DNA of 64,000 bases, taken from positions 263,085-327,084 of the forward strand of contig CAYGVI010000003.1 in assembly GCA_964353335.1 (NCBI GenBank), written 5' to 3'. Under the pieces are notes generated by a model that saw only the letters and a list, made by a program, of their open reading frames with translations, did no database searches and was not told where the DNA came from. Each line of letters begins with the position of its first letter. The first letter of the stretch is position 1. The translations under genes and the position numbers were made by a program. The stretch comes from an uncultured Methanosarcinales archaeon (GTDB lineage Archaea > Nanobdellota > Nanobdellia > Woesearchaeales > ARS49). Shown piece by piece: positions 33,443-59,022 of this stretch.

Positions 33443-35512
33443 ATGGGAAAAAAGAGGTTGTTGGCGCTAATTACATTTCTGGCTCTCCTAGGCGCATCTG
33501 CAGCAGCAGGCGCTACTATTGCGGGATACGCTGAAGAATATGTCTATACAAACCCCGGCTGCATCCCTTTTTGTTTTGGGAATAACAAAACATATGACCT
33601 TGGCGGAACATTTCAGGTTTTTGAAGCGACCAAAGTGGGTGGCCACCAGAATCATGAGGCAGAGTGGTTTGACGGCGGGCTTGCGCTCTTTGTTGGCAAC
33701 ACCCAGACCACGAGCTGGTACTTTTTGGGGGCTGCAAACCGCCCTCTGCAGACATTTTACCATGATTTTAACGGCTCATATGCAGACCGCGTTGTTGCCT
33801 GTGGCTGCAGTTATGACTACCACCAGAGCACCCACCCTTTTTCAATAGAATACAACAGGAATTTCTTTGTCAGAAGGACCAGTGTATTAGACGACCCAAA
33901 CGAGCCGCTCGGTGAGGCTGGAAGCTTCTTTACCAAGTTTTCAAACCTGACAAATGACTCAGGATGGAGGATAAGAGTGAATGCTGCCAGCCCCAACTCA
34001 ATGGTTTGGCTTGGTGACGAGGAAAGCTACACCACGCATGAAACCTCTGATTTGACTGCTAAAGTGTATGGCTGCGCAGACACAAACAAAAACCAAATCT
34101 GCGATGTTAGAGAGCCGAGCTTTATGTTATGCAATGATGTAGGCGGCGACTGGTACGATGACTTGTGTTGCGGAACAAACTATACAGAAGGATATGTCAA
34201 GTCAGAACCCATAAATATCACCCAGATTTGTGTTCAAAGCACTTATGCAGGATCCTGCACTCGTTATGCCGATGTTGTGCACAACAAGAGCATTAATGCC
34301 ATTTGCGGAAAGACTGCTGAAGGAAAATGGAAATGGGCTCCGCTTGATGAGGTTGGTGAAGTTTTTGACCTTCTCGGCTGGCCAAATGCATCTGTTGTTT
34401 CTGACGGAACAAACCTTTACAGCTGTGGAAACCAGATTGAAAACTACTCAGTACCGTCTGATGTTTACTCGGTGTGCTTAAAAACAGAAAGGCAACGGAC
34501 TGCAAAGGGATATGAGGATGTTTGCGTCAAGTACCAGTATTTGTGGAGACACACACAAATCATCAACAGCCCTGCAACAACCCTGTTTGGGCAATTCATC
34601 AGTGTCGCTGTCGGCAGTGCAACTCACATGTATTCCTGCAAGGACAAGGTTGTTTACGAATGCTCTGGCAAGACAGGGCCTTTCTCAACAAACAATGGCG
34701 CTGAGATGGGCACAACAAACCCGAGCTTTACTAATGAAACATTTTACTGCGCCTCTGACGCTGACTGGACATCTGACCTTGACATAAAGGACGATGAGAG
34801 CTGTGAGGCAGCAGGATTTTCATGGACAGGCTCGCGCTGCTGCAGCGAGGCAGATGACACTTCAGAATACTACAATGACCCCAAGTTCCCGAATGCAACA
34901 GGCGGCTGCTGGAACAAGATGTTTGTCAGGTCAGGCGATTATGCAGTAACTGACAGGATTCTCAACTACAAGGGCAAATTCTTCGGCTGCAGACTCAGCC
35001 TGATAAATGATGCCATCCTGCTTAATATCAAGGATTATCACCTGGATAACCTGCTTATTGACAACAGCATAACCCCTTGCGGCGCGGTGCTTATGGATGC
35101 CCAGCCAGGCGGAATGCCGCACGCAAAATGCCAGCCGAACGGCGAGTGGATGTTTACTGACGAGCCTGGCGGAGTAATCAACAAGAGCATAAAGTGGGCA
35201 GGCCTTGTCGGTCCGGGAATAGCATTGTCAGGCTGCTGCGCTCCAGACCAGTGCTGGAATGGCACAAAATGCCAGAAGCTCGGGACTTATTACAGGCTTG
35301 GCGAAGAGGGTTTCATTTGCAAGATGCTGCCGCCAACTTCAACGCCAGAACCGCCTACATCAGAAATATGTCACCACAACAATGATTGTCCCACGGGGCA
35401 ATACTGCGCAGATCAGGAGTGCATCAGTGGCTCGCTTCCAGATACCTGCGCTAACAATAATGCGTGTCCTTCGGGATATCACTGCCAACAACACGAATGT
35501 GTTGAAGAGTAA
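33443..35512 (+). CDS. Large secreted Cys-rich protein (hypothetical surface protein)
   Basis: 689 aa; Sec signal 'MGKKRLLALITFLALLGASAAAG'; >50 Cys; C-terminus carries two 'NxCPxGxxCxxxxC' knots. Confidence 0.6.
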   Translation: MGKKRLLALITFLALLGASAAAGATIAGYAEEYVYTNPGCIPFCFGNNKTYDLGGTFQVFEATKVGGHQNHEAEWFDGGLALFVGNTQTTSWYFLGAANRPLQTFYHDFNGSYADRVVACGCSYDYHQSTHPFSIEYNRNFFVRRTSVLDDPNEPLGEAGSFFTKFSNLTNDSGWRIRVNAASPNSMVWLGDEESYTTHETSDLTAKVYGCADTNKNQICDVREPSFMLCNDVGGDWYDDLCCGTNYTEGYVKSEPINITQICVQSTYAGSCTRYADVVHNKSINAICGKTAEGKWKWAPLDEVGEVFDLLGWPNASVVSDGTNLYSCGNQIENYSVPSDVYSVCLKTERQRTAKGYEDVCVKYQYLWRHTQIINSPATTLFGQFISVAVGSATHMYSCKDKVVYECSGKTGPFSTNNGAEMGTTNPSFTNETFYCASDADWTSDLDIKDDESCEAAGFSWTGSRCCSEADDTSEYYNDPKFPNATGGCWNKMFVRSGDYAVTDRILNYKGKFFGCRLSLINDAILLNIKDYHLDNLLIDNSITPCGAVLMDAQPGGMPHAKCQPNGEWMFTDEPGGVINKSIKWAGLVGPGIALSGCCAPDQCWNGTKCQKLGTYYRLGEEGFICKMLPPTSTPEPPTSEICHHNNDCPTGQYCADQECISGSLPDTCANNNACPSGYHCQQHECVEE

Positions 35513-35527
35513 GCATAAAAAAGAGGA

Positions 35528-36727
35528 ATGATGGGAATGAAATGGGTTTGGGCATTGGTATTTTTGATACTTGCAGTTCTGCCATTTGTTGCCGCAGAAG
35601 ACCAGGCTGACTGGTTCGCAATTCCGATACGCTACTCTTGGGACCTGTCAATGGGAGGCTCTTGCACAAACAGCACCCAGTGCCTCATACACCTGCTTGG
35701 AAACGACACTTATGACGGCGACATACAAAGATACTTCAAGCAGTTGGACACCCCTGGGCTCGGTCCGAGGTGCGCAAACAATTCGCAGTACATACTTGAT
35801 TATTCCTGCGATGCAGGAAACTGGACAACCCGCACAAAATACCTTGCGCTTTACCTCCTGAAATATGCCGAGGCAAATTCAGCAGGCGCATTCACGCTTT
35901 ACTGTGACACTTATGAGCGCGTGCTGAACCAGTTCAGTTATTATGTGAAGAACGTGCTTGTGTCTGATTATTTCCAAAATGCCTGTGTCATTCAGGGAAA
36001 GACTGTTCCCTGCATTAACAAAATCTGCGTGCTGAGAACACCCCAGGTTGTCGCAATCGGAACCACAATCAATGGGCCAATCAATGACCCTGCCCGCTCA
36101 TTCCTGATTGCGCTGAATGAAAGCCCTTCATTGTGCGACGGCCACGATGCTGAGCACGGAACTGATTTCACAAAATGCGAAGCTGAAAAGCCTGTTTGGT
36201 ATAACCCCTCATTGCAGGCTGTTGTCTGGCTTTCTGCAGGCTCTCTTGCACCGCCAACAGCAGACACCAGGACAAAAATCACAACGCCAATGAGCAGCAT
36301 GAGCTCTTATGTGATGAATGTCCTGCACAATGAGGCAAAGTCTGGGATGAATTTCATTTATTTCCCGCGCACAAGATTGTTCAACCACATTTATGTTGCG
36401 CAGAACGGCCCAAGGGGGATATTTGGCTTCCTTGAGGCAGGCTTGCGCCCAGAGTACACGCTCCTGCCTGATAATGAGTCAGAGCCAATCCCGCTTGACT
36501 ACATCGGCGTGCGTTACACAGGAATAGAGCTGTATGAAACCAGCAACCTCACCTGCCTGAATCTCATAAAGAAGTATGACACCAATGCATTCTGCGAAAA
36601 CCAGACAGCAACAGGATTCAATGTAATCGCAAGGCACCGCTGCGAGCCGGGCTATGAGGATAAATGCAAGGGCGCAAGCCCGATTGTGGGAGTATGGCCT
36701 GCCTTGGCAGGAAAGCTGAGGCCATGA
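35528..36727 (+). CDS. Secreted Cys-containing protein (hypothetical)
   Basis: 399 aa; signal 'MKWVWALVFLILAVLPFVAAE'; multiple N-x-S/T sequons. Confidence 0.5.
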   Translation: MMGMKWVWALVFLILAVLPFVAAEDQADWFAIPIRYSWDLSMGGSCTNSTQCLIHLLGNDTYDGDIQRYFKQLDTPGLGPRCANNSQYILDYSCDAGNWTTRTKYLALYLLKYAEANSAGAFTLYCDTYERVLNQFSYYVKNVLVSDYFQNACVIQGKTVPCINKICVLRTPQVVAIGTTINGPINDPARSFLIALNESPSLCDGHDAEHGTDFTKCEAEKPVWYNPSLQAVVWLSAGSLAPPTADTRTKITTPMSSMSSYVMNVLHNEAKSGMNFIYFPRTRLFNHIYVAQNGPRGIFGFLEAGLRPEYTLLPDNESEPIPLDYIGVRYTGIELYETSNLTCLNLIKKYDTNAFCENQTATGFNVIARHRCEPGYEDKCKGASPIVGVWPALAGKLRP

Positions 36728-38043
36728 AAATGAAAGCGCAGCTTACGCTGATGATGCTAATGGGGCTTGTAATGCTTATCGCGGTTGGAATTGTTTTGTA
36801 CATCGGCGGGTCTTCAATGACAAAAAGCACAGAGCGGGGAAGTGAGCAGCAGCGTTTGAGCCAGTCTGCAATCCAGACAATCAGGGATTATGTCCACTCG
36901 TGCCTTGACGCAACCACAACAGCTGCATTGGACCTTATCGGAAAGCAGGGCGGAGTGCTTTACAGGGCGCAGGGCGGCTTGACTCCTGACATCCTGCCTT
37001 CAGACCCGCAGGGCGGGCGCTATGTTATTTATGATGGGCTTAATGTCAGCTACCTCATCCACAGGCCCAGCCAGAATGTTGGCAGGCTTTATTTTGCAGA
37101 GCCTCCGGATTATCCATGGGTTACATTCCCGTATGTCCTTAACAAGTCAGACATGTCAGTCATGAGGACAACATACACCGGCTACTTTGGCATATCGCTT
37201 TTGCCCCCGCTTTTCAAGCCAGGCAAGGACTCCATCCAGGAACAGATTGAGTCATACATCAGCTTCAACCTTCCGCGCTGCACAGACTGGAGCTCATTCA
37301 AGGGGCTTTCAATCACTGCTGACAAGCCAAATGTCTCTGTAATAATCGCAGAGAACAAGACGCAGATTGAAACAGAGCAGTATTTCTCAGTGGTCGCGAA
37401 CTGGCAGGTGAACATCACTGACAGTTCCACAGGTTCCAACACCACACTTGACATGTTCTCGCGCGGTTATCCTGTCCACCTCGCAAAATTCTATGTTTTC
37501 GTGCAGAGCCTGATTTACAGCGAGATAAATGATTCATCATTTGACCCGCTCTCGCAAAGCTCGCCTGCAAGCCCTGTTTTTGTTTTCAGGGACATTTTCA
37601 AAAATCCAGAGGATGAAGGCGCTGATGACCTGATTATTGTAAAGGATGCAGAGTCAGAATTGCGCGGCAAGCCATTGGAGTTCAGGATACTGAGGCAGAA
37701 CCGCTATCCTGCGCTTGTCTGGATAAACCAGTCTGACATCAACAGCTATGCGTTTTACAGGATGGGCATGTGCCCAGCGAAAGCGCAGTCAATATTCCTC
37801 GAAGGCAACCAGCTCAAAATAACTTATGCAACAGACTCTCCGTATGAATGGTCTGGCACGCTTTCAGCAATTGACCCTGATGAGGACAATGTCAGCTTCA
37901 GCATCAAGCCTGAGGACGGGATAATAGATGACGTCCCGCTAAATGACGCCCTGTTCAGGCTGTTTGTTTATGCCTCTGACGGCGGAAACACAAAGGATTA
38001 CCAGATTGTCAACCTGACACTTGCGGGTTGCCCTGAAGAATGA
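36724..38043 (+). CDS. Class III signal peptide (type-IV-pilin-like) protein, 440 aa
   Basis: Start 'MKMKAQLTLMMLMGLVMLIAVGIVLYIGG' (basic residues, A, then Q+1 and a hydrophobic helix) overlaps the upstream stop (ATGA); large extracellular domain. Confidence 0.5.
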   Translation: MKMKAQLTLMMLMGLVMLIAVGIVLYIGGSSMTKSTERGSEQQRLSQSAIQTIRDYVHSCLDATTTAALDLIGKQGGVLYRAQGGLTPDILPSDPQGGRYVIYDGLNVSYLIHRPSQNVGRLYFAEPPDYPWVTFPYVLNKSDMSVMRTTYTGYFGISLLPPLFKPGKDSIQEQIESYISFNLPRCTDWSSFKGLSITADKPNVSVIIAENKTQIETEQYFSVVANWQVNITDSSTGSNTTLDMFSRGYPVHLAKFYVFVQSLIYSEINDSSFDPLSQSSPASPVFVFRDIFKNPEDEGADDLIIVKDAESELRGKPLEFRILRQNRYPALVWINQSDINSYAFYRMGMCPAKAQSIFLEGNQLKITYATDSPYEWSGTLSAIDPDEDNVSFSIKPEDGIIDDVPLNDALFRLFVYASDGGNTKDYQIVNLTLAGCPEE

Positions 38044-41000
38044 GAAAACTTTTGCTTATCGCGGTGGTTGCGGCATTTTTCTACATGGCACTCTTTTCCC
38101 AACAGGCATCCGGCCAGGAGCAGGGATGCTGCTGCGAGCCGATTTATCACCGCGGAATCATTGAGGAGCGCTCTGCGTGCGAGGAAAAAGGATATAACTT
38201 CACGTCAGAGCTTCCTGCCGAGGTCGGAGAAAGCTGCGACCCCATCTGCAATTCAACATTCGGCATTCCAATCATCATAACCCCGCCTGCTGACTGCGAG
38301 TCCCCGTTTTTCAACCCTGCTCCAATGAGCGTGGTTGCAAAGGCAGTCAAGGGAAAGAAGCAGATCAGGCTAATCTACACTGTTCCGTGCCCGATGCAGG
38401 CAATTGCTGTTAACATCTCGCGCTGTGCAGGTGATGATTGCGAGGACTTTTCCCAGATTGCCCAGATGTCGCCCACAGGGGTTTACACTGACGCGTCACC
38501 TGACCTTCTCTGGAACACCCCTTACACTTACATGGTGGTCATTACCTCGCGGATTTCAGGCGCTTCAGAGCCTGGCTTCGCAATAGGCAATGCAGGTGAC
38601 ATTGAATGCTGGAATCAGGGATTTGACAAGTTTTGCATTTCAGATTACTACTACACCCGCTTCCAGGAATATTTGTCAATGTATGGCTACAAGGATACCA
38701 GTGCAGATGCATTTGCAGGCGATTTACAGTCTTCTGTTGAGCTGACATTTGCTGACAAGTTTAATACCGGGAGATACTGCAATGATATCAACCTGCTCAG
38801 CGACACTGGCTTAAGCTGCCCTGAAGGAAAGAAGTGTGTCTCAGGAAAGCTCGGGCTTGCTTGCATCACTCCAACGTCCTGCGAAGGCGGCGGATTGTTC
38901 GGGCTTTACTCATCACTTGAAACCTGCGAGGGAACCGCGTCCGCGAAGAAGTACTGCTTCTTTGACCGCTCGCACAGTTCTGTTGACCGGTGCTACTCCT
39001 GCAGTCCGCAGATGAGCTGCGCTGACTACAGGTCAGAGGGCACGTGCAACCGCGACAACTGCTTTGCAGGCAACTGCTCATGGAAGCCTGTTTTCCCTGA
39101 CATCGGAATCGGTGTTTGTGTTGACAGCAGGTTCCCAAACTGCGCGTGGTGCACAAAGCAGGGCACAGAAGGGCTTGAAAACACTGATGCCTACAATGAA
39201 GTGTTTGACCAGTGCACTACAAGGAAATCAATAGCGCTCACTGTTCCAAATTATCTTTGCACATTTGACAAGAATGCCCAGGAAAGCAATGGCTGTGACG
39301 CCACTGCCTGCATGGATTACAATGACACTGACTGCGGCTCGCCTGCAGGAGGCATTCAGCTCAATCCTGACAACTCGCTTGAGGTTGGAAGCACTGACCC
39401 GTGCAGCATAAAGGTCTGCCAGCTTCAGTCCGGCATAGGCTGCCTGAAGAATGCTGACGGAAACGGTCTCTTTGACTGCGGCATAAAATCTGATGACCGA
39501 AGGCAGTGCGAGCTTGACCATTATCCGCCGAACACAACTTTTGTCGCTACCTCTTACAAGCCAAACCGCATGGACTGGCTCGAGGCAAGGATGCTTGACC
39601 AGGTGAACGGCACTGCAGACGCAGATTACATGCAGGGCAAACAGGGCTACAGGCTGAGGGTTTGCGTTGACAGCGAAGAAACACCCTGCGCTGAAGCCAC
39701 AACATTTGCCGAGACAAACCTTTCCTTGCTGAACTTCAATGACCTTTACCTGCAGGCAGGCAGGGATGTGGTTGCCACGATGTCCGACGGCGAGAACACG
39801 CTGAAATATTATGGAGTTGACCGCAGCAACAACCCTGAAGTTATCAAGGAAATGACAATACTTGCCTGCGACAAATGCCAGGGGCCCAAAGTGCTTGGCA
39901 TCAATGTCACCCCAAGCCGGAGCTACGAAGGAAAGTTTTACACAATATCCGAAATTCCAGTAATAACTGTCGCGTTCAATGAGCTTTCAACCCTGACAAC
40001 TGCCACGCTTTCAATCGGCAACAAGGTGATGCCTGTAAACGTCATGCCTCTTGGAGGGGCGAATTATGATTACACTTTTATCCCGATAAACACGCTGGAG
40101 GATGGCGAATACCTGCTGGCGTTCAATGCAAAGGACAGCAATGGGCTGCTTATGGACTTGCCTGGCTTGGCAATTATTGTTGTTGACACCACCCCTGGGG
40201 ATGTCACAATACTTCCTCCTGACGGAACTGTCATCAATGACACGTCAGTTGCAATCTCTTTCACCTTCAATCAGCCTCCTGTCAGCCTGCTTGGTGCTTA
40301 CCTTGACAATGAAGTCTGGATTAGCAAGTATGCCACGAAGAAAAAAATAATGAACCTGACATCAAGCCTTGTGGAAACAGAGCCCAATAAGGTCTATGAC
40401 ACCACTGTCGATGAGCTTTACGGCGGAAAGAAGAACATCAGGGTTTATGCAGAGGACTTCGCAGGCAATCCTGTAATAGGAAAGTCAAGCTTCTGGATTA
40501 ACAGCGGCCCATTGCAGATGAGGATGCGCGAGCCGAGCTGGGGTGTAAGCGCAACATATGTGTTTGACATCGCGATTGATACATCAATAGCCGCCACGTG
40601 CAAGTATGCGTATGACCTGCCTGCGCCTGTTCCTGTTGCGGCGTTTAATGACTTCCTTGCCCCATTCCCAGAGGAAAAAGAGGTTGTCCACAAGATTCCC
40701 GGATTTAACAAGATTTCTTTCGGTGATATGAAAGCGCACAAGCTTAGTGTTTATTGCAAGGCAGGGGCTAACATCACGATGGAGACATTTGAGCTACGCG
40801 TTGACCCAAGCCCGCCAACAATCAAGTCTGCTTACGCAGACCCTGCGGTAATAATTGAGCGCAGGACTCCAAGCGTGGACATATTCACAACATACCTGAA
40901 GGCTCAGACAGATGATGACGGCTTCTGCAGGTACAGCACCGAGAGCAAGCCGTTCATACTTATGGACGGGCTGTTCTCAGGCTTTGACGAATACCCCAAG

Positions 41001-49413: not shown

Positions 49414-49416
49414 GAG

Positions 49417-49773: not shown

Positions 49774-49779
49774 CCAAGG

Positions 49780-49800: not shown

Positions 49801-49836
49801 TATTTCCCGAAGCAACATTGTAAGAGGTGTTCAAAT

Positions 49837-50142
49837 ATGGATAAGAAAGCTCAGGGGCTACCAATAACAACAATTATCATAGCTATCCTTGGACTGGTTG
49901 TTCTGGTCATTTTGTTCGCAATCACTACAGGCAGGCTTGCCATATTTGGAAGGGCTACTGCAGAATGCCAGGGCATTTGTGTCGGTGAATACACTGGCGC
50001 AACCCCTGACCAAAATGCCCGCGAATGCACAGCTGGTTTTGAGAAAGAAGTTGGCGGCAATTATGTTAAGCCAGGACAGCCGCAGAGTATCAAGGCAGAG
50101 GAAATACTCAAGTGCTCGCGCTGCTGCCTGCCAATTGCCTGA
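49837..50142 (+). CDS. Small pilin (class III signal peptide), paralog 1; candidate major pilin
   Basis: 101 aa; 'MDKKAQGLPITTIIIAILGLVVLVILFAI'; mature part has 6 Cys including a C-terminal 'CSRCC'. Confidence 0.55.
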   Translation: MDKKAQGLPITTIIIAILGLVVLVILFAITTGRLAIFGRATAECQGICVGEYTGATPDQNARECTAGFEKEVGGNYVKPGQPQSIKAEEILKCSRCCLPIA

Positions 50143-50272
50143 TGGCGCTTATCACAGAAGCAACGCCCGGAAAAATTGTTGTTTTGATTTTCCTCGCGCT
50201 GCTGCTAATATACCTTGTCACCACATTGTTTGTGCTTGACAAGCAGCTTGTAATACCAATAATACCCGTACC

Positions 50273-50551
50273 ATGAAGAAAGCACAAGGTCTTCCAATAA
50301 CAACAATCATTATTGCAGTTCTTGGGCTGGTTGTTCTGATTGTTATTATGGGAATATTCGGGGTCCGCAGCCAGAAGTTCGGCAAGGGCGTAAGCGAGGT
50401 AGCTGAGCCCGTCTGCCAGGCGCAGTATGTTACTTCCATGACTGACTGCGATGCACGTGGCGGCGAAGCCCAGGTTGGCAGCTTTGTTAAGGAAGACAAG
50501 AGCCGCCTTGGCTTTACAGAAGTCTGTTGCTCTAAGGCACAATCACCCTAA
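50273..50551 (+). CDS. Small pilin (class III signal peptide), paralog 2
   Basis: 92 aa; 'MKKAQGLPITTIIIAVLGLVVLIVIMGIFG', near-identical N-terminus to paralog 1; C-terminal 'VCCSK'. Confidence 0.55.
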   Translation: MKKAQGLPITTIIIAVLGLVVLIVIMGIFGVRSQKFGKGVSEVAEPVCQAQYVTSMTDCDARGGEAQVGSFVKEDKSRLGFTEVCCSKAQSP

Positions 50552-50715
50552 ACCCCTTCTTTTTTCACCGAAAGCCTTATATAAATAGTATTCTCGGAAT
50601 TGCTTATGAAAAAAGAGGCTGTGACATACACCCTACTTTTGTGGCTCGCAATGCTTCTTATACTGTTCTTAATCATAATTTCTGTCATGAGGCGCATGAC
50701 CGCAGGCGGTGCACC

Positions 50716-51642
50716 TTGAGGCGCGGCGCAATCGGTGTTAACACCCTTGTCAGTCTGGCAGTGCTGCTTATCGTGGTTTTTGTGATGCTGGGGTTGATTC
50801 CTGGGTTTACGCAAAAGCTTCAGGCAGCTGAAAGCGCGAGCACGTGCTCGTGGTCTATCCTTCTTGCTTCTGTGCAAAAGCTCGGCTCAGCAGGAATTGC
50901 ACAGGGAATTCCAGAGGGCTGCAAGGCAATAATGGTCAATGTCTCAATGAAAGACCTTGAGAAAAACCAGAGGCTCGCAAGCAACCGCATATCAGAGTTC
51001 ATGAACAAGCCTGACATTTACAAATCACAGTATTTCACAAACACAAACAAGGAAACACTTAACGAATTCGCGCTCGACAAGATACTTGCAGATGAGCTCG
51101 TTGACTGCTGGGAAAAAGTCTTCAAGGGAAAAATGCCCTTGTTTGATGAATGGTGGCGGCTTTACTCATGGAAAGAAGGCAACCCTGGCAGTGGTCCGGT
51201 TGCTCTGCAAGTCTGGAATGTGCAAGTGCATGGTCCGCCTGTCAACTGCGTTATTTGCTCGCGAATAACATTTTCAGATGAAGTTATTTCACAATTTAAG
51301 CAAAAGCAAATAATCTCACTTGAAGAATGGATGTCCCTGAATCCAGTTCCTCGGACAAATACTCCGTATCTTCAGTATATTTATGAAGGCCAGACCGGCA
51401 CAGACCTGTTCAAGCCAAAATACAGGCCAAAATACAGCTTTGTTGCTGATGAGCGTGGATTAGCGGTTCTTTATCAGCGCGTGAATGTCCATGGACTCGA
51501 AAGCGCTGTCACAACACCCTTGAAATGGATTGGAGCAATTCCTGAAAAAACTCCAGACCTGAACTATCTGAAGCTTGTTCCTTACTCGCAGGAAGCCATA
51601 ATTTCACAGGATGGCGAGGGCTGCACGCTTATAATTGACTAA
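50716..51642 (+). CDS. Pilin/archaellin-like protein with class III signal peptide (probable TTG start)
   Basis: ORF track gives an ATG at 50641, but that adds 25 residues with no function. A TTG at 50716 preceded by 'ggcggtg' yields 'MRRGAIGVNTLVSLAVLLIVVFVMLGL', a textbook archaeal class III signal; ~308 aa. Confidence 0.45.
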   Translation: MRRGAIGVNTLVSLAVLLIVVFVMLGLIPGFTQKLQAAESASTCSWSILLASVQKLGSAGIAQGIPEGCKAIMVNVSMKDLEKNQRLASNRISEFMNKPDIYKSQYFTNTNKETLNEFALDKILADELVDCWEKVFKGKMPLFDEWWRLYSWKEGNPGSGPVALQVWNVQVHGPPVNCVICSRITFSDEVISQFKQKQIISLEEWMSLNPVPRTNTPYLQYIYEGQTGTDLFKPKYRPKYSFVADERGLAVLYQRVNVHGLESAVTTPLKWIGAIPEKTPDLNYLKLVPYSQEAIISQDGEGCTLIID

Positions 51643-51809
51643 AATGATAAAAACACTTTATTCGTTGTGGAAAAACAGGAAGGCAATGGATATTCCCGGA
51701 TGGGCTTATGTCATCGCTTTGATTATCGGTCTGTTTGTGATACTGTTTGCAATCTGGATTGCTGCAAAGTCAGGTTCCAAGCAGTCCGGCTTCCTGGAGC
51801 AAATATAAG

Positions 51810-54800
51810 ATGCACAAGAAAGGCCAATTCGCGGGCATTCCTATCCCAATAATACTTGGGATTGTCGTGATTCTGATAGTTTCAGGAGGGCTTCTCTGGA
51901 GCATGGGCGGTGGAATTGCGCAAAAAATATTCGGAGAGCGCGGCATCCTTCCGCTTGGCCAGAAAGAAGGGGCATTTGTGCCTTATACAGGTCCCCCGCT
52001 TACAGAAGATGAACGCAAGGTTTTGAACTCAGCGAATGCCCTTCGCTGTGCTCTAAACAGCGTTGCAGTGGGCGAATTCAGGCCAGACGACCCTAAAGTC
52101 TGCCCTCCGCCTCTTGAATCAGTGCCGCAAAATATTGTTCAATCCCCCACAGGTCAGGCATGGGTTGTTGTTACTGGAATGGCTGCAACACCAAAGGCAT
52201 ATGACGCCTCTGCTGTGCAGTGCACAGGGATGGCTCCTAACCGCATTGTTGCCCCTGCAACAGAGGATGAAACACTCGTGGCGATTACAAAGGAAATACT
52301 CGATTGCAAGGCAAGAGCTTCAGTCACTTACTCTTCGCAAGACCTGCGTTGTGCATACATTGATTACAAAAGGAAGGCGGACAGCTTTTCAATCGATGAG
52401 GACAAGCTGATCGCATTCATGGAAAAAAACAAGGCAAAATTCCCCGGTCAGGAGAAAACAATTGATGAACTGCTTTCAAGCGCGAATTATGCTTGGCAGA
52501 ACCTCATTGAGATACAAACAACTTTCAATAAGGGGAAAATCAGCAGCAATCCTGATGAAGTGTTCTGCGTCGACTTCAGGCACGGGACCGTACTGAATTA
52601 TTACATCAGCATAAATGACTGCGACCTTGACGCCTCAGAAACATTCTCCTGCTCTGTGAAAGACTTTGAACTGCCGCAGGATGTTGGCGGAACCACGGCG
52701 AAATTGTTCCTCTCGGCATACGGCGACCCGCGATGGCTTGTCTATTACGAGTCATTCCCGTCTGAGGCTGCCGAATACTGGCACAAGGAATGGAGCGACA
52801 TGTTCAACGTGTGGACCATCGCCACCGTAACCGCCTCAGGGATGCTTAACCTGGCTGGCGGAGCAGGAAAAGGGGCAAAGGCAGTGAAGGCTGTTGCTGA
52901 AAAGGAAGCCAAGGAGCTCGCAAAGGAGACTGGTGAGGCATTGGCAAAGCGCGGGATTGCCGAAGCAGAAAAAGTGATTATTAACCGGCTTGCCAAGAAC
53001 GGTGTTGAAAACACGATGAAAGCAGCAGTGATGAAAGAATCATTCCAGGGAATAAAAGGGGTTGGCGAGGAAGCTGCTGACGAGATAACAGAGGTTATTT
53101 TGAAATCTGTCGGAACAAGGTCAGGTCCTCGCGCATGGGAAAAAGCAATGGAGCAGGGTGTTGCAAAGCAGATTGATGATGTTGTTGAGAAGAGGATTAA
53201 GGATGTTCCTGATGCATTTGTCAAGACTTGGAGGGAAACGGTGCCAATAACCGAATTGACCGGCCCTGGAATGACTGGGCTGCCTGACGCAGAAATCCGC
53301 GCAAAGGCATTGCAGGCGTACAAGGAGTCTGTAAAGAAGTTTGTTATTGAGGGCAAGGAACTGCCTGAAGAAGCCATAGAGGCAGGTGCAAAGAGGACAA
53401 TGTCATTTGCAGGCACAGAAGTCAAGGGCGGGCTAAAAGAACTGATTGAAAGGGACTTGACTAAGGAAATGTCAGCCAATATTATCAAGAAGCGCGCTTA
53501 TGAAAATCTTCTTTCCAAGATGATTACAAAAGAGGGAACGCTGGATACTGCGCTGTTCACAAAGAATGCAGAGTCAGCAATCAACAGCCTTAATGCTATA
53601 GGACAAATAAACCCCACTGGGCTTGGAAAGGCACTGGGCGGGTCTAGAGAAATACTTGACATTTTGCTGTCAAACTCATTAGGCGGATTCTCCACAAAGA
53701 ATTTCCCAAAAATATGGAATCCAAAAGAGCTTTTTGCATTTATCACTGCGCAATCGCCGATTAAGCTTTCAGGCAGGGGTTTTGTAGTTGGAGGAACCGC
53801 AGTTAAAACCGTTGCTAACATGCCTAGCTGGGTTGCCACTCACTCCTATCCTGCAATGCTGCTAATTTCCTGGTTTATCGCAGCACAGGATTCTACTAAT
53901 CAAAAATTCAGGCCTGTTGGCGGAAATACCATTGCCATCAACCAGCCGACCCTGCTTGGTCCGACGCTGCCGCTTGACCTGACTGGTACCGCGTATGACT
54001 TTTTTATCCAAAACAAGGACAAGTACGGCCAAAGGATGTATTATGTCAGCCCGTGCAAGGCAGACCTTACGGTTTACAAGCGCAAGTGCACATGCTACAA
54101 GAACCCGCAGCTGCATAAGTTCACTTATCCCACAGGAACAATCAATGTTGAGCCCGGCTCTGTTAAACCTTTGTCAGGCTCAGTCCTTGAGGCAAAGTTC
54201 AAGACAAAATGGGAGCAGACTGCCAAAGCAGTAAAGTTTGAGAACTGGCGCGCGCAATGGAATGCTCTTGATGCAAAGACAAAATCAGATGTATACGGTG
54301 ATTCGTATGATAAGTATGCGCTCGCTGAGTACATTGATGAGGAAATGGACAAGTATGATGCCAATTTCTTCCAGGAAGTGGTGTCTCCTGTAGGTGGGCT
54401 TGTAAAGGGAAGGAGTGGAATAATAACCTGGCTTGCCGGGACACAAAATGTGCAAACCGGGCTTTCTGCGCAATTGTATGGTGAGAGGATGAAGGAGTGG
54501 TATGATGCCTCGCACGCAATCAAGCGCTGTGACCAACCAGGGTTTGTAAAGGACGTTATGAATTTCGGAGGCACGCTTTATTACAGCTATATGGCAGGAG
54601 GAAACCTGTTCGACACAACAATGGACGCTGAAGCCAAGAAGAATCTCGAGAATAGCCTGCTCCAGGACGAGTACTTCAAGCCAGACTGCCTTGAAATAGA
54701 AACAAAGGTTCTTGATGGCACTTATTGTTATGACTCCTTCCCAAAACTGGAATGGGTGAGGAATGCAGTCACGATTGCTTCGCTTGCCGCTGATGCTATT

Positions 54801-54908
54801 ATAATTGGAGGGTCCGGCGGGTTTGCCACACCGCTTGCTCTGCTTGGAACAGGGATTTTGTCAGCAGGGACTGATGTTGTGCTGGAGGCTTGGGAGAAAT
54901 GGCCATGA
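51810..54908 (+). CDS. Giant (~1,032 aa) protein with class III signal peptide (pilus-associated adhesin candidate)
   Basis: Internal ATG 51810 gives 'MHKKGQFAGIPIPIILGIVVILIVSGG'; large extracellular region, central Ala/Lys/Glu-rich helical segment, C-terminal hydrophobic Gly-rich tail. Confidence 0.55.
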   Translation: MHKKGQFAGIPIPIILGIVVILIVSGGLLWSMGGGIAQKIFGERGILPLGQKEGAFVPYTGPPLTEDERKVLNSANALRCALNSVAVGEFRPDDPKVCPPPLESVPQNIVQSPTGQAWVVVTGMAATPKAYDASAVQCTGMAPNRIVAPATEDETLVAITKEILDCKARASVTYSSQDLRCAYIDYKRKADSFSIDEDKLIAFMEKNKAKFPGQEKTIDELLSSANYAWQNLIEIQTTFNKGKISSNPDEVFCVDFRHGTVLNYYISINDCDLDASETFSCSVKDFELPQDVGGTTAKLFLSAYGDPRWLVYYESFPSEAAEYWHKEWSDMFNVWTIATVTASGMLNLAGGAGKGAKAVKAVAEKEAKELAKETGEALAKRGIAEAEKVIINRLAKNGVENTMKAAVMKESFQGIKGVGEEAADEITEVILKSVGTRSGPRAWEKAMEQGVAKQIDDVVEKRIKDVPDAFVKTWRETVPITELTGPGMTGLPDAEIRAKALQAYKESVKKFVIEGKELPEEAIEAGAKRTMSFAGTEVKGGLKELIERDLTKEMSANIIKKRAYENLLSKMITKEGTLDTALFTKNAESAINSLNAIGQINPTGLGKALGGSREILDILLSNSLGGFSTKNFPKIWNPKELFAFITAQSPIKLSGRGFVVGGTAVKTVANMPSWVATHSYPAMLLISWFIAAQDSTNQKFRPVGGNTIAINQPTLLGPTLPLDLTGTAYDFFIQNKDKYGQRMYYVSPCKADLTVYKRKCTCYKNPQLHKFTYPTGTINVEPGSVKPLSGSVLEAKFKTKWEQTAKAVKFENWRAQWNALDAKTKSDVYGDSYDKYALAEYIDEEMDKYDANFFQEVVSPVGGLVKGRSGIITWLAGTQNVQTGLSAQLYGERMKEWYDASHAIKRCDQPGFVKDVMNFGGTLYYSYMAGGNLFDTTMDAEAKKNLENSLLQDEYFKPDCLEIETKVLDGTYCYDSFPKLEWVRNAVTIASLAADAIIIGGSGGFATPLALLGTGILSAGTDVVLEAWEKWP

Positions 54909-55549
54909 AAAAGCTGTTTGCCATACTTTTGGCAATAATCATTGTAATCCTGATTATTCTCGGAACGCGGTGGATTATGCAGCCAAAAATTCACGTGTAC
55001 AGCAACAATCCTGCTGACTGGCTTTCCACTGTTCCAGGCGGCGTAAGTGTTGACGTAAAAGAGGCAACTCGCGGAAAAGGGTCATACAATGACGTTAATG
55101 AGCAGATTTTGGTTCCGGGAATGGGCTTTACTGCATTTGCGTATGAGGGAATTTACAAGAGTAATTTCTTTGGCACTAAGTACATTGATGAAAACGGAAA
55201 GACAATAATGGAAGTGACTCCAAACATGAATCCAAATGATGGAATCCTGCAGGGATTTATGGTTGAGCGGGCTGTTAATGGCACGTTGGAAACCTATATT
55301 TTCATTGATGAGGACTGGCGCAGGGCTCTTGGCAATGACATCAGGATTGTTTGGGGCTCTGATTATTCAAAGAGCAGGCCATTTTCTTTCAGGCAGTTAA
55401 GGACAGGAATTTATCATGATTTTGTGCAGGACGACAGCGGAAGGCTTCAGGCTGAAATAAGCGTTGGCGGGGTCCAAGTTGGAAACATGCAGACAGGCGG
55501 GGTTGACCCTATGCAGGCAGGGAACATAATAATGATGGCAATACATTAG
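54905..55549 (+). CDS. Membrane-anchored protein (pilin-like N-terminus)
   Basis: 'MKKLFAILLAIIIVILIILG'; ATGA overlap with the upstream stop; ~214 aa. Confidence 0.45.
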   Translation: MKKLFAILLAIIIVILIILGTRWIMQPKIHVYSNNPADWLSTVPGGVSVDVKEATRGKGSYNDVNEQILVPGMGFTAFAYEGIYKSNFFGTKYIDENGKTIMEVTPNMNPNDGILQGFMVERAVNGTLETYIFIDEDWRRALGNDIRIVWGSDYSKSRPFSFRQLRTGIYHDFVQDDSGRLQAEISVGGVQVGNMQTGGVDPMQAGNIIMMAIH

Positions 55550-55575
55550 AAAAAGTTAAATACGGGGAAGCAAAA

Positions 55576-55881
55576 ATGATGCTTATGAAGAAGCGCGGAC
55601 AGGGTTTGCCAATCAACACTATCATTCTTGCAGTGCTTGGGCTGGCTGTTCTTGTCATCCTTCTTTTCCTTGTGAGCGGCAAGCTGAGTGAGGGCTCCAA
55701 GAAGTATGGCAATATCACCCAGAGCGCAGAACAGCAGGCAAAGTCACAGGATGTTTGCGAGAGTGTCTTTGCCTATCCGCAGAGAAAGTGCCTTTCTTCA
55801 TCCGAGTGTACCCAAAGGAACGGCTTTGACAGGCCAGGGTACAAGGGCTGTGGTTCTAATGTTTGCTGCGAGCTTGGATAG
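55576..55881 (+). CDS. Small pilin (class III signal peptide), paralog 3
   Basis: 101 aa; 'MMLMKKRGQGLPINTIILAVLGLAVLVILLFLV'; C-terminal 'CGSNVCCELG'; same architecture as 49837/50273. Confidence 0.55.
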   Translation: MMLMKKRGQGLPINTIILAVLGLAVLVILLFLVSGKLSEGSKKYGNITQSAEQQAKSQDVCESVFAYPQRKCLSSSECTQRNGFDRPGYKGCGSNVCCELG

Positions 55882-55917
55882 AAACATTTATATTCTCTTT
55901 TTAACGGCTTTTCCGTC

Positions 55918-56382
55918 ATGGACAAAAGAGGGGAAGTAGAGACTGCGCCGCTGATAGAACTTGTCAATATAGTGCGCTACGTAATCATTTTTCTCATCCT
56001 GCTCTCGATTTTTTACGGCACTTATGCATTGTTTTTCAAGGAAAAATCATCACCACAGCAGCTGGACTGGGACCGTGTTATCAGGGAAATCACTGCCCTT
56101 CCTGAAGGCAGGTCAGTGAATGTCATAACGTCTTCAGAGGGCTACCAGCTTTTCCTTTACGGTGGAAACAATGATGAGCAGCTTTGCGCAAAAAAGCCCT
56201 GCCTGTGCATTGAGCAGCCAGAAAAGCCAAGGAAATGCGCACTGCTTTCAGGTTTCCAGGACAACTGCGCAAACGGGCTTTGCGCCAGGCCGTCAATGTT
56301 CCCTGAGTCAGGAATACTGCCAAAAGGCACCCCTGTCCCAATCTGCAGGCAAAAAAACCAAATAACACTGGGCACGTGCTAA
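55918..56382 (+). CDS. Pilin-like protein (class III-like signal)
   Basis: 154 aa; 'MDKRGEVETAPLIELVNIVRYVIIFLILLSIFYG'; Cys-rich C-terminus. Confidence 0.4.
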   Translation: MDKRGEVETAPLIELVNIVRYVIIFLILLSIFYGTYALFFKEKSSPQQLDWDRVIREITALPEGRSVNVITSSEGYQLFLYGGNNDEQLCAKKPCLCIEQPEKPRKCALLSGFQDNCANGLCARPSMFPESGILPKGTPVPICRQKNQITLGTC

Positions 56383-56383
56383 G

Positions 56384-57298
56384 ATGTTCTCAAAAAAAGC
56401 ATCCTGGGTCGGTCTTGTATTGCATCCGTTATTTGAGACTGCCATCGCCCTGGGCATTGTGCTTCTTTACCTTCTCTGGTTCATACACGGAATAGGCGAA
56501 ACAGCCACGTATGAGAAAAGGTTTTTGTCAACAGACATTCCTTTGCTGATGGACTCAATACTTGCAATGCCGCAGAAAGGAAACCTGTACGCGCTTTACA
56601 ACCCACAGCGCTCGACAGATTTCAGCACAAATTACAGCTTTAGCTTCTTAAAAAACCAGGTAATAATAATGGCAGGACCTGCAGACAAAAAGCAGGTCAC
56701 TGGATATTATACTTCAAAGCCAGGAATATATGTGCAGGAAAAACAGTTTATTGCAAAAGACGCCATGATTGTTCCGCTGTTTATACTGCAGGGAAATGAC
56801 CTGTTGATTGACAATGCGAACAAGCGCGAACTCACATACAACCGCAACATAATGCCCTGCTCAGGCCCAAGATTCCCAGGAACACTGAGCATACAGGGGG
56901 AAAATGCTGCAGCACAGCTTCTTTTGGGCCAGCGCTGGGCTGTAAAGTCAGGCGGAAGCGGTGCTTTCAGCATGCAAATCAAGCAAGGGCAGGAAACTGT
57001 TGTCAAGGCATACTTTAACGCAGAACAGCCTGCAGACCAGCTTGCCCAGAGCAGGCGCATTGCCTGCGAGGTTGCAAATGCAGCAGTGCGCGGGCTTGAC
57101 AAGATAGGCATTGATGTTGCCGGCTCTGCATTCATCCCGATAAATCCCAAGCACACAGGCAGCACTGATGATGACTTCCTGCAGGGGCTTGGTGTTTTGC
57201 TTGAGATTGATACTCCTGAAAAGCTTGACAATGTTCAGACACAGGTAACGCCGCTTGCGCTTGCGGTCGGAGAAGGGGTGCAGAATGCGAAATCGTAA
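56384..57298 (+). CDS. Pilin-like/membrane-anchored protein
   Basis: 304 aa; 'MFSKKASWVGLVLHPLFETAIALGIVLLYLLWF'. Confidence 0.4.
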   Translation: MFSKKASWVGLVLHPLFETAIALGIVLLYLLWFIHGIGETATYEKRFLSTDIPLLMDSILAMPQKGNLYALYNPQRSTDFSTNYSFSFLKNQVIIMAGPADKKQVTGYYTSKPGIYVQEKQFIAKDAMIVPLFILQGNDLLIDNANKRELTYNRNIMPCSGPRFPGTLSIQGENAAAQLLLGQRWAVKSGGSGAFSMQIKQGQETVVKAYFNAEQPADQLAQSRRIACEVANAAVRGLDKIGIDVAGSAFIPINPKHTGSTDDDFLQGLGVLLEIDTPEKLDNVQTQVTPLALAVGEGVQNAKS

Positions 57299-57773
57299 GG
57301 CTGTGCTGGCAGAGGGGGTTATTTTCTGGATGATTTACATCGCTATGACCGGAGTTGTTATTTTCCTGATACGCGCAATCCCATCAACAGTTTACAGCCA
57401 GGCAACAGAGACTTTCGGAATGGAAAACGCAGTGCTCACAGACCGCGTTTACAATGAGGTCGCGTGGGAATCGCCTTTGACGCAGCGCGAATACATTGGC
57501 GAGCTTCCAAAGCTCTCTGACTGGGACACAAAGCGCATCAACAGCGCATTTGACACGCTCGGCGCTCCAAGGCAGCTCAGCTTCAAATTGACTCTTGAGG
57601 GCAAAGAGGCGTATTATGACGAGGCGTTTTACAAGCGCGCAAAGCCATTGTCTCCTGTGCGCTACAAGAGCTTTGTTGAGACGCGCCCTGTCTGGATTGT
57701 GGAAGACAAAAAAATTGCAACACTGGAGATTGACCAGGTGTTTGCGCCAGTGCCTCCTGGAGGGATGGTATGA
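57285..57773 (+). CDS. Pilin-like protein with class III signal peptide
   Basis: Start 'MRNRKAVLAEGVIFWMIYIAMTGVVIFLI' overlaps the upstream gene by 14 nt. Confidence 0.45.
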   Translation: MRNRKAVLAEGVIFWMIYIAMTGVVIFLIRAIPSTVYSQATETFGMENAVLTDRVYNEVAWESPLTQREYIGELPKLSDWDTKRINSAFDTLGAPRQLSFKLTLEGKEAYYDEAFYKRAKPLSPVRYKSFVETRPVWIVEDKKIATLEIDQVFAPVPPGGMV

Positions 57774-58159
57774 ACAGGAAGGCGGCAATGGGAAGGGCAT
57801 TGACAATCCTCATGTCAGCAGGGATTATCGCGCTGTTTTTCTTCATATTCATATTTGTTATTGAAATAGGCACGCCTGGCAAGGCAATGGGTATCAGCGA
57901 AAACCTGAACGGCCTCAGCAGAGAAAGCCAGCTGAGGACAATAATAAGCCATTCTGCAGATGACCTTGCTCAGGCAAAGCCAGGCAGTGTTCCTGAGATG
58001 GTCAAAGAAACATTTGGCAAGGATGCAAAGTTTGCCCTGTATATCAACAACGCAATTGTTTCAGGAGCAAAAGTTGGCAGGGTAACTGCGGCAATTAACA
58101 CAATGCTTCCAAATTATGAGGGCAGCACTGTCAGTGTAAGGCTGGAGGTAGGCTCATGA
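57770..58159 (+). CDS. Pilin-like protein with class III signal peptide
   Basis: 129 aa; 'MNRKAAMGRALTILMSAGIIALFFFIFIFVI'. Confidence 0.45.
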   Translation: MNRKAAMGRALTILMSAGIIALFFFIFIFVIEIGTPGKAMGISENLNGLSRESQLRTIISHSADDLAQAKPGSVPEMVKETFGKDAKFALYINNAIVSGAKVGRVTAAINTMLPNYEGSTVSVRLEVGS

Positions 58160-59022
58160 TTTCCCTTTTGCGCAACAAAAAGGGAATGGACTACGCAGCA
58201 CTTCTTGTCCTTGTGGTTATTATCTGCCTGATGTACCTTTACATCCAGCTGCAGGGCAAGGTAAACACTTTCCAGGTCAGCATTGGCGAATCCCAGATTG
58301 CTGTCCTCAATGCGTATCAGGAAGGGGAAAAGGCATTGCTCTATGTTGACCAGTCTGCAAAATTCTCTGCATACAAAGCACTTGACACCCTTGCCCAGCG
58401 CGCAGGCGTGAAAGAATATGCGTGCGCAGACATAACAGAAGGAGGCAAAAAGATTAATTCTTGGACAAAACAAAATGGAACTATCGATGAATGCCTCGCT
58501 CTTGTCCAGCCGTATGACGCATTTAATGAGCTTATGAACGGCCACATGACAATTTATTCCTCAAAATACACAAATGCATCCCTGCCTGCGAACAATTATG
58601 AGATGCTTGTTCAGAAAGACAGCATCACAGGCACTGCAATCTCTTCTGCTTCGGTTTATCTCAAGCCGCCAACACAATATGCTGCATTCTATGTCTGGTT
58701 CATAAAAGCAGCAGAGGCAGAGCTGAAGAAGGCTGCAATCGGCGAATATGCATTCAAGCCCTCATTCACTGTTCCTGTAAAGGCAGAGCTTGGCATTTAC
58801 GAGAATATGAAAAACGAAGTGAAAGCGTTCTATACGTGCACAAACACAAACTCTATTGATGAATGCGCAAAAGCGCCAAAGCTTTTCACGCTTGCACGCA
58901 GCTCTGAAAACCCTGATTATCTGATTGCAACAGCAAAGAACCCTGTGAGCAACCCGTATGGTGCAATGAGCGACATTGTTTTCGCGATTTCTGCCCCTGT
59001 TGCCCCTGCTGTAACCGCGTAA
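58156..59022 (+). CDS. Pilin-like protein with class III signal peptide
   Basis: 288 aa; 'MISLLRNKKGMDYAALLVLVVIICLMYLY'; last gene of the coupled block. Confidence 0.45.
   Translation: MISLLRNKKGMDYAALLVLVVIICLMYLYIQLQGKVNTFQVSIGESQIAVLNAYQEGEKALLYVDQSAKFSAYKALDTLAQRAGVKEYACADITEGGKKINSWTKQNGTIDECLALVQPYDAFNELMNGHMTIYSSKYTNASLPANNYEMLVQKDSITGTAISSASVYLKPPTQYAAFYVWFIKAAEAELKKAAIGEYAFKPSFTVPVKAELGIYENMKNEVKAFYTCTNTNSIDECAKAPKLFTLARSSENPDYLIATAKNPVSNPYGAMSDIVFAISAPVAPAVTA

Follow-up and report, generated by a model that had tools for sequence, protein, structure and literature searches.

The subject of this study is a block of genes at positions 33443-59022 of a 64,000-nucleotide (nt) stretch of archaeal DNA (hereafter the window; contig CAYGVI010000003.1, positions 263,085 to 327,084), many of whose products begin with class III, or prepilin-type, signals. 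The block probably encodes the substrate half, meaning the filament and its accessory proteins, of a Woesearchaeota-specific type IV filament (TFF) system, and we regard it as a previously undescribed variant of such substrate loci that extends across the lineage. An earlier note on the same DNA had already regarded the architecture as undescribed, and indeed our literature search found no description of this locus, while its protein families fall outside of Pfam and NCBIfam. The gene content of the window is archaeal (Cdc6, RFC, FEN1, PAN, TyrRS, PheRS, RPA, and RadA) and the host genome is of the Woesearchaeota/Nanoarchaeia type, that of a tiny DPANN archaeon; Woesearchaeota are among the most widespread uncultured DPANN archaea. 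A genome collection was scanned with the family of the 360-amino acid (aa) protein encoded at 43630, which yielded 256 confirmed loci, all of the Woesearchaeota/Nanoarchaeia type, and 80 of these were kept. The 80 species loci, each reaching ±10 kb around the 360-aa gene and together comprising ~1.2 Mb, are the related loci referred to throughout, and homolog counts among them are limited by contig ends. The top match of the 360-aa protein in the collection was Candidatus Nanoarchaeia archaeon isolate OBJ1_062018_130_26 (98% identity), and the record titles of the 80 kept loci read Candidatus Woesearchaeota, Candidatus Nanoarchaeia, or Nanoarchaeota. Automated metagenome-assembled genome records titled "uncultured Methanosarcinales archaeon" (L015, L016, L022-L024, and others) hold the same Woesearchaeota-type gene family, and such titles probably do not reflect the true taxonomy.

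All of the block genes lie on the + strand except for one regulator, and the open reading frames (ORFs) are present at the coordinates given below. The supposition that most of them are translationally coupled was borne out: 14 of the 24 junctions between consecutive + strand genes overlap by 1-14 nt, eight of these being of the 4-nt ATGA type, and a further two are 1-nt gaps. The earlier gene list was incomplete, having overlooked three conserved ORFs (50142-50276, 50606-50719, and 51644-51808). The proteins with class III or class-III-like N-termini and the mini-proteins located among them are as follows, with ↓ marking the predicted processing site:

36724-38043, + strand: 439-aa class-III-signal protein, MKMKA↓QLTL...
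43115-43633, + strand: 172-aa class-III-signal protein, candidate minor pilin, MNNRA↓QMIGQ...
43630-44712, + strand: 360-aa class-III-signal protein of a large conserved family, MSKRA↓VEMQFNW...
44712-45194, + strand: 160-aa class-III-signal protein, MKKA↓QIQMFE..., with a weak N-terminal BasB match
45184-45675, + strand: 163-aa class-III-signal protein, MRRDKRG↓QMEIMGL...
49837-50142, + strand: 101-aa Cys-rich small pilin candidate 1, MDKKA↓QGLPITTIII...
50142-50276, + strand: 44-aa mini-protein with a single transmembrane (TM) segment, conserved in relatives
50273-50551, + strand: 92-aa small pilin candidate 2, a paralog of 49837 (47% identical)
50606-50719, + strand: 37-aa single-TM mini-protein, 63% identical in the related locus L009
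50716-51642, + strand: 308-aa class-III-like protein, MRRG↓AIGVN..., TTG start, with a weak N-terminal ComGF match
51644-51808, + strand: 54-aa helix-only pilin candidate, NRKA↓MDIPGW leader; 57 aa if started from the TTG at 51635
51810-54908, + strand: 1,032-aa giant with a class III N-terminus, MHKKG↓QFAGIPIPIIL...
55576-55881, + strand: 101-aa small pilin candidate 3, ..KKRG↓QGLPINTII...
55918-56382, + strand: 154-aa class-III-like protein with 8 Cys, MDKRG↓EVET...
56384-57298, + strand: 304-aa class-III-like protein whose C-terminal domain is a degenerate Amidase_3-like one, MFSKKA↓SWVG...
57285-57773, + strand: 162-aa class-III-like protein, MRNRKA↓VLAEG...
57770-58159, + strand: 129-aa class-III-like protein, MNRKA↓AMGRAL...
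58156-59022, + strand: 288-aa class-III-like protein, ..RNKKG↓MDYAAL..., the final block gene, with RPA next at 59071

A detector that required [KR][GA] within 16 residues of a start, followed by a 17-residue window with a hydropathy of ≥2.2, was positive for 15 of the 27 curated cluster proteins versus 3 of 46 window ORFs outside the cluster (Fisher's test, p = 5e-6), and one of those three encodes a lipobox lipoprotein. The earlier note had assigned class III signals to 16 genes, and the assignment held for 15 of them. These 15 as well as the 54-aa ORF at 51644 encode a short basic leader ending in G, A, or S that is followed by a ~20-residue hydrophobic helix, with hydropathies of 2.3-3.6 over 17-19 residues beginning ≤9 residues from the predicted site, and orthologs of the 15 on four related contigs keep [KR][KR][G/A] with A<->G swaps. 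The remaining gene, 54905, has equivalents with L, A, L, T, and V at position -1, and its product is on this basis a plain signal anchor rather than a class III protein.

The prepilin-type character predicted for these N-termini is clearer from the comparative data than from any single sequence. These data span up to 80 related species. In the 36724 family (22 loci), position -1 is A16/G5/S1 and +1 is Gln in 22/22; the 43115 family (n=64) has K/R at -2 in 61 sequences, A45/G18 with one exception at -1, and Gln at +1 in 58/64. Gln at +1 is likewise found in 66/66 members of the 44712 family (-1 = A34/S19/G13; +6 = E in 66/66) and in 70/70 members of the 45184 family (-1 = G30/A23/S17; +3 = E and +6 = G, both in 70/70), and the small-pilin family has A or G at -1 in 47/47 and Gln at +1 in 45/47. 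The pattern is tight in every family with ≥20 sequences and looser in the sparsely sampled 50716, 51635, and 57285 families; among the window proteins themselves, 8/16 have Gln at +1. A small residue plus Gln after a basic leader is the recognition pattern of archaeal EppA-type peptidases (PMC4390842; PMC3875500; PMC2910488), and Gln at +1 is essential at the EppA-type prepilin peptidase site (PMC4390842, PMC3875500). Thus, the variable small residue at -1, the invariant Gln at +1, the two basic residues, and the helix together constitute an EppA/Epd-type class III signature. The combination of a small residue at -1 with Gln at +1 supports class III processing because a signal anchor has no need of it. 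By comparison, the Sec-type proteins encoded at 33443, 35528, and 38040 lack K[GA]Q, and their hydrophobic cores are shorter.

The second line of evidence is conservation. The comparison of synteny in related archaea that the earlier note had proposed showed the locus to be conserved in 80 of the 256 detected species loci, and the entire block recurs in the same order beside RPA-YdjM-RadA even where the identity of the giants is only 25-55%. The four pilin-like genes 43115, 43630, 44712, and 45184 are found in 65-80 of the 80 related loci, and in 60/80 a ~1,700-aa homolog of the 1,692-aa giant is located directly upstream of them; this core module, made up of the giant and the four class III genes, is present almost throughout the lineage. 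Other components are less frequent, with the small pilins present in 27-35 of the 80 loci, the AbrB/MazE plus PhoU-like regulator in 35/80, the Lrp/AsnC regulator in 33/80, and the Cys-rich secreted proteins of 689 aa and 399 aa in 29/80 and 31/80, respectively. Up to 14 class-III-like genes occur within the ±10 kb of a relative. An internal 3.6-kb segment that differs between strains might suggest a mobile or viral nature for the block, as an island of foreign surface genes, but this is highly improbable: the GC content across the block (0.46-0.52) is that of the remaining window, the same housekeeping neighbors (RPA, YdjM, and RadA) accompany it in species with as little as 25% identity, neither an integrase nor a tRNA or repeat boundary was seen in the window (tRNA and Rfam scans of which were empty), and the core is present in 256 species-level genomes. 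A mobile island was consequently rejected on conserved synteny and composition.

The third line of evidence comes from the 1,032-aa giant and its allelic replacement. The large and Sec-dependent proteins of the block, together with the replaced segment, are:

33443-35512, + strand: 689-aa secreted protein with 38 Cys and a short Sec-type signal (MGKKRLLALITFLALLGASAAAG)
35528-36727, + strand: 399-aa secreted protein with 14 Cys and a short Sec-type signal, no Pfam match
38040-43118, + strand: 1,692-aa type I membrane giant with a Sec signal, Cys-rich ectodomain, C-terminal TM segment, and cytoplasmic tail
54905-55549, + strand: 214-aa protein with a plain N-terminal signal anchor, co-varying with the 1,032-aa giant
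51953-55589, no strand: allelic cassette comprising the 1,032-aa giant from ~codon 48 plus the 214-aa gene, replaced in a same-species strain

The class III N-terminus ascribed to the 1,032-aa giant (MHKKG↓QFAGIPIPIIL...) was confirmed. In a second strain of the same species, the DNA flanking 51953-55589 is 97.2% and 97.9% identical, and blastn found no match between the two strains inside this interval. The swap begins ~48 codons into the giant, past its signal and helix, and ends after the 214-aa gene, and protein identity across the alleles is 24% for the giant and 40% for the 214-aa protein. The 1,032-aa giant and its downstream gene thus form a swappable cassette that retains the N-terminal signal and helix. 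The alternative giant allele shares 64% identity with its counterpart in a species whose identity to the window is otherwise ~60%, from which it follows that two old allele types circulate, and each allele type has ~55-64% identical relatives in other species. Pilin/adhesin loci under diversifying selection typically pair a conserved helix for assembly with a body that can be exchanged. The retention of ~48 codons accordingly counts in favor of a pilin-type reading because pilin alleles behave in this way.

The 1,032-aa giant contains 14 Cys, solely at residues 80-281 and 749-973, and its residues 282-748 are Cys-free, K/E-rich, and helical-looking. The 1,692-aa giant contains 76 Cys, three CGGxC-type Cys repeats, and three DxDxDG motifs, and its TM helix at 1493-1511 is followed by a ~170-aa charged tail that is probably cytoplasmic. 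The earlier note had described it as a surface protein with Ca-binding repeats; its topology is that of a type I membrane protein. A highly charged tail on the cytoplasmic side is unusual for an archaeal surface protein, and the tail suggests a possible coupling to something intracellular. The earlier comparison with a PilY1-like tip adhesin did not hold, because the 1,692-aa type I protein bears a Sec signal and is held in the membrane near its C-terminus, ahead of the cytoplasmic tail; no PilY1, DUF2341, or vWA domain was found by Pfam in any giant. Neither a Pfam scan nor a PDB sequence search returned a match for the 1,692-aa, 1,032-aa, or 689-aa proteins. As for the three secreted Cys-rich proteins of 128-689 aa that had been reported, those at 33443 and 35528 were recovered and the 128-aa one was not identified inside the interval; the only candidate of that length is encoded at 32849-33235 on the - strand, just outside. 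This divergent 128-aa protein (MKRG↓ILIAVILLVVV...) lies at the left block border, has no Pfam match, and may be a further class-III-like or anchor protein.

Candidates for the bulk subunits of a filament are found among the smallest class III proteins. The products of 49837, 50273, and 55576 share K[A/G]-QGLPI[TN]TII and a Cys-rich tail ending in CC, and paralogy inside the cluster is restricted to these three. In an alignment of the 49837 family (alignment A1, 28 sequences), Q6, G7, and L8 are invariant and the C-terminal CC is conserved. There are 66 small-pilin homologs, every one annotated as hypothetical, and the few that carry an organism name are from Ca. Woesearchaeota plus one Ca. 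Aenigmarchaeota. A structure check of these ~100-aa paralogs had been suggested: an AlphaFold2 (AF2) model of the 49837 product (pLDDT 79) predicted a helix at residues 10-37 followed by a three-stranded sheet, and Foldseek found no match for it. The mini-ORFs of 44, 37, and 54 aa sit among the pilin-like genes and encode one membrane helix each. The 44-aa ORF (50142-50276) is the most conserved gene of the block, with 83-95% identity to its orthologs, while the 54-aa ORF (51644-51808) has 58-80% identity and a conserved leader (-1 = A5/G5 in 11 loci), although its start differs among gene callers (40-54 aa). It encodes one hydrophobic helix plus a short tail with no globular domain, and as a candidate pilin it resembles the described helix-only Epd/Flp (EpdE-like) pilin class (PMC3875500; bioRxiv 10.64898/2026.04.22.720090). 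The 360-aa protein belongs to a family with 1,301 cluster representatives at E≤1e-3, and its AF2 model (pLDDT 94.3) predicts a helix at residues 3-58 followed by a beta domain and a helical bundle; comparison of this model with PDB structures gave no significant match.

A number of observations weigh against the assignment of the block to a type IV filament system, the first of which concern the signals themselves. A FlaFind-style regular expression ([KRDE][GA][ALIFQMVED][ILMVTAS]x3, applied as a bare pattern rather than through the server), a test that had been set beforehand, accepted only 2/16 N-termini (36724 and 57770). The other 14 were rejected on account of a G, P, Q, or E at positions +2 to +4, and we judged the expression to be too narrow for this lineage rather than the signals to be false. 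Neither Pfam (E≤0.01, including PF04021 and PF07790) nor NCBIfam at its cut-offs provided a matching pilin or class III model; sub-threshold profile matches to the pilin-like proteins BasB, ComGF, and ComGE, confined to the N-terminal helix, count on the other hand as weak evidence for the assignment. A conserved acidic residue is located at +2 (43630), +3 (45184), or +6 (44712) rather than at +5, the small pilins have no conserved acidic residue near the site, and the DUF361 motif QxSxExxxL with its +5 Glu was not found in the class III proteins, nor was a PF04021 match. The 1,032-aa giant has weakly hydrophobic segments at 331-352, 674-692, and 987-1027 that are recognizable in the other allele too, such that it may be polytopic rather than fully extracellular and ill-suited to filament extrusion.

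The remaining difficulty is the assembly machinery. As the earlier note had stated, none is encoded in the window, where the only Walker-A proteins are Cdc6, an ABC ATPase, PAN, RFC, and RadA and where T2SSE, T2SSF, and Peptidase_A24 had no match among the scanned proteins. Among 25 polytopic proteins flagged in the related loci, the 10 most plausible included no platform or peptidase by Pfam, the tested neighbors being SecY, MFS, PMT, PAP2, Vut_1, and similar proteins. Further assemblies of the same species gave access to part of the flanks: the left one (~10 kb) contained no motor gene and led into PolD, eIF2-beta, and SpoIIM, and the right one (~3 kb) contained none either, leading into RadA, TRAM, LigT, Peptidase_S51, and S2. 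Walker-A scans of the 80 species loci, each covering ±10 kb around the 360-aa gene, revealed no TFF-type ATPase. With no motor in the window, the flanks, or the 80 loci, the locus is consistently unlinked from one. The earlier note had treated a motor-free locus as exceptional, which it is not, because separate pilin loci are known in Haloferax and Methanococcus (PMC3875500, PMC4858521). flaI, flaJ, and flaK are reported for Woesearchaeota genomes (PMC5994134), as are highly expressed archaellin-type genes (PMC11606122). Given the surveys that report flaI/flaJ/flaK in Woesearchaeota, it is plausible that the ATPase, platform, and peptidase are encoded elsewhere in this genome.

The main true alternative is that the N-termini are uncleaved signal anchors. 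The proteins would then be type II membrane proteins and belong to an envelope or cell-contact complex that is specific to the lineage and has no type IV machinery. The lack of machinery near the locus in the sampled species, the lack of any pilin profile or fold match, the failure of the regular expression, and the presence of a plain anchor (54905) in the same operon are all compatible with this possibility. It leaves unexplained, however, why K/R-K/R-[G/A/S] followed by an invariant Gln recurs in five unrelated families across 22-70 species, and why just the first ~48 codons are retained in the swapped giant, and we regard it as quite unlikely.

If the block does supply the substrates of a type IV filament, an EppA/PibD-type prepilin peptidase would cleave after the small residue, and an ATPase and platform from elsewhere in the genome would extract the helices from the membrane and polymerize them. 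The bulk subunits would be the three ~100-aa Cys-rich paralogs and/or the 54-aa helix-only protein, while the larger class III proteins (129-439 aa) would act as minor or modular pilins that prime assembly and bear extra domains, among which may be the amidase-like module of the 56384 family. The 1,032-aa giant might serve as a variable adhesin or specificity head whose conserved N-terminal helix inserts in the filament or its base and whose remainder is exchanged between strains, with the Sec-dependent Cys-rich proteins and the 1,692-aa type I giant as putative associated envelope or anchor components. The two embedded regulators (AbrB/PhoU-like and Lrp), together with the EF-hand-like mini-proteins and the kinase-like protein, would control expression. 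The likely role would be the attachment of an episymbiotic DPANN archaeon to surfaces or partner cells.

In a close variant of this reading, the class III proteins might instead build a short scaffold like a pseudopilus or the Sulfolobus bindosome (Bas), processed by the peptidase but forming no long pilus, that holds large envelope proteins at the cell surface, among them the giants, the amidase-like module, and the secreted Cys-rich proteins. The majority of the class III proteins are indeed large or have extra domains (129-1,032 aa), the Sec-dependent partners and the membrane-anchored 1,692-aa giant are conserved in the core module, and archaeal class III signals are also widely found on proteins that are not part of filaments (bioRxiv 10.64898/2026.04.22.720090). 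The bindosome protein BasB was also the sole curated-profile match at E<0.001, but this match covers the N-terminal helix alone; moreover, no substrate-binding-protein domains appeared in the Pfam scans, and the three ~100-aa paralogs and the 54-aa helix-only protein look like bulk subunits. We consider such a scaffold unlikely.

The nearest described system is that of the Epd pili of Methanococcus maripaludis, or TFF "system 1" (Makarova clade 1). M. maripaludis has about 11 pilin-like proteins of 67-299 aa with a K-G↓Q-type site, encoded at ≥4 genomic places (PMC3875500), such that the earlier statement that this locus has an order of magnitude more pilins than known loci was too strong. The Epd locus comprises 11 genes, and archaeal "system 1" is described as pilin-rich and present in DPANN (bioRxiv 10.64898/2026.04.22.720090). 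In both cases, the leader ends in a small residue with Gln at +1, i.e. an EppA-type site (PMC4390842), there are many pilin-like proteins of varied size that include very short helix-only subunits, and there are several minor pilins and adhesin-like proteins with some pilin genes located away from the machinery (PMC3875500, PMC4858521). The Epd operon differs in having an ATPase, two TadC-like platform genes, and EppA, none of which are in this locus. Here, DUF361/PF04021 (QxSxExxxL) is missing and the acidic residue is displaced from +5 to +2, +3, or +6, ~16 class III genes occupy one block with giants of 1,032 and 1,692 aa, the ectodomains are Cys-rich, and regulators are embedded.

Four other systems offer partial parallels. 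As in the bacterial type IVa minor-pilin/PilY1 operon (fimU-pilVWXY1E) and the type II secretion system (T2SS) minor pseudopilins GspH-K, four to five minor-pilin-like genes are found beside a >1,000-aa surface protein and apart from pilB/pilC/pilD, one member is oversized (360 aa here, compare GspK/PilX), and allelic variants are exchanged between strains; on the other hand, neither sequence nor fold gave a match, the neighboring 1,692-aa giant is a type I protein that depends on Sec and has no PilY1 domains, and the host is a single-membrane archaeon. The fusion of a class III N-terminus to a functional domain is shared with the modular pilins PilB and PilC of Streptococcus sanguinis (PMC8179133), the modules here being Amidase_3 (56384 orthologs) and a ~985-aa variable body (51810), although these are unlike known modules, the amidase is degenerate in the window genome, and filament membership is only predicted. 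Haloferax volcanii PilA1-6 are likewise encoded by multiple pilin genes apart from the ATPase/platform operon (PMC3875500, PMC4858521), but they form one paralogous family with a conserved H-domain and scattered genes, whereas the present locus contains about ten unrelated families in one 25-kb block. The Sulfolobus bindosome has in common class III signals on non-classical subunits and the weak N-terminal BasB match, yet no counterpart was seen here of the ATPase and platform encoded within the Bas locus or of the sugar-binding proteins that it serves.

One of the class-III-like proteins provides a clue to the possible partners of this archaeon. Distant orthologs of the 304-aa protein encoded at 56384-57298 contain Amidase_3 behind the same SK[KR][G/A] N-terminus, and the domain is apparently intact in the orthologs at L007:7005-8057 (Pfam Amidase_3, E 2.6e-12) and in P0258. 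The window copy has no PF01520 match and has lost Zn-ligand motifs, with DPGHG and a 41-residue segment deleted and a His ligand replaced by Gln; the L007 and P0258 orthologs keep these elements. A peptidoglycan amidase on an archaeal pilin-like anchor hints at bacterial partners. Large extracellular murein-degrading proteins in Woesearchaeota/Pacearchaeota were earlier read as hints of bacterial hosts (PMC8204110), and an Amidase_3 domain linked to class III signals fits this theme, even if the domain is degenerate in the window genome. We entertain, as a doubtful but not far-fetched proposition, that the locus encodes a Woesearchaeota-specific host-contact organelle, a filament or pseudopilus consisting of ~10 families without a Pfam, NCBIfam, or PDB match, with an EppA-like K[G/A/S]↓Q signal, a strain-swappable giant, and in some lineages an amidase. 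If this were true, these families would supply the cognate pilins for the DPANN ("nanoarchaeal") secretion ATPases, and the displayed peptidoglycan amidase would link the organelle to bacterial hosts, which it would help to adhere to or to attack. An earlier census failed to find pilins matching the "nanoarchaea" secretion ATPases (PMC4858521).

What is already known includes genomes with many pilins (about 11) and pilin loci that are unlinked from motors. New are the families without a curated-library match, the conservation of a large locus across a major uncultured lineage, the giant class III protein inside an allelic cassette, and the fold of the 360-aa protein, which is confidently predicted by modeling yet has no PDB match. 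The locus offers ~16 candidate substrates in families outside of Pfam and NCBIfam, a core conserved in at least 256 species-level genomes, and, in the ancient two-allele cassette of the 1,032-aa protein, a clear candidate specificity determinant, all of which are concrete targets for metaproteomics, filament structure prediction, and prepilin-peptidase assays. It also illustrates that FlaFind-type rules and current profile libraries overlook the class III proteins of one whole lineage.

The center of the block is occupied by genes of a different kind:

45724-47622, + strand: 632-aa membrane protein with a kinase-like (APH) C-terminal domain, Pfam APH E 1.8e-6
47609-48508, - strand: AbrB/MazE plus PhoU-like transcription regulator, Pfam PF04014 E 2.1e-8, the sole minus-strand gene inside the block
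48636-49112, + strand: Lrp/AsnC-family regulator, Pfam AsnC_trans_reg and HTH_24
49102-49773, + strand: two small proteins of 103 and 115 aa with EF-hand-like loops, sub-threshold Pfam EF-hand (49426)

Both transcription regulators noted earlier were verified by Pfam as AbrB/MazE plus PhoU-like and Lrp/AsnC, and the kinase-like and EF-hand-like assignments were also upheld, albeit by a weak APH match and by sub-threshold matches (E 0.0016), respectively. The 632-aa protein has two weak TM segments, was found in 12/80 loci, and is possibly a sensor or regulator. The EF-hand-like loops are located at the C-termini of the 103- and 115-aa proteins (DKDRDCKITEKE, DKNGDGHITREE); an N-terminal membrane helix is predicted at 23-41 of the 115-aa protein, and the 103-aa protein has no segment above threshold.

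Outside of the block, a separate second cluster of surface protein genes is located at 16646-22303 on the - strand, and homologs of it are absent from the 80 related loci. Three of its products are paralogous lipobox lipoproteins of 307-331 aa; another, of 399 aa, begins in a class-III-like manner (..KRG↓QASGSAAST..), and a further one, of 517 aa, has 5-6 TM helices in its N-terminal part and matched nothing in Pfam. The window also contains two TrmB-like regulator genes, at 1851-2654 and 24769-25572, which are 22 kb apart and encode proteins of 267 aa each with near-identical N-terminal regions (..ALLSRGVATAGELSDIANVPRSRSY).

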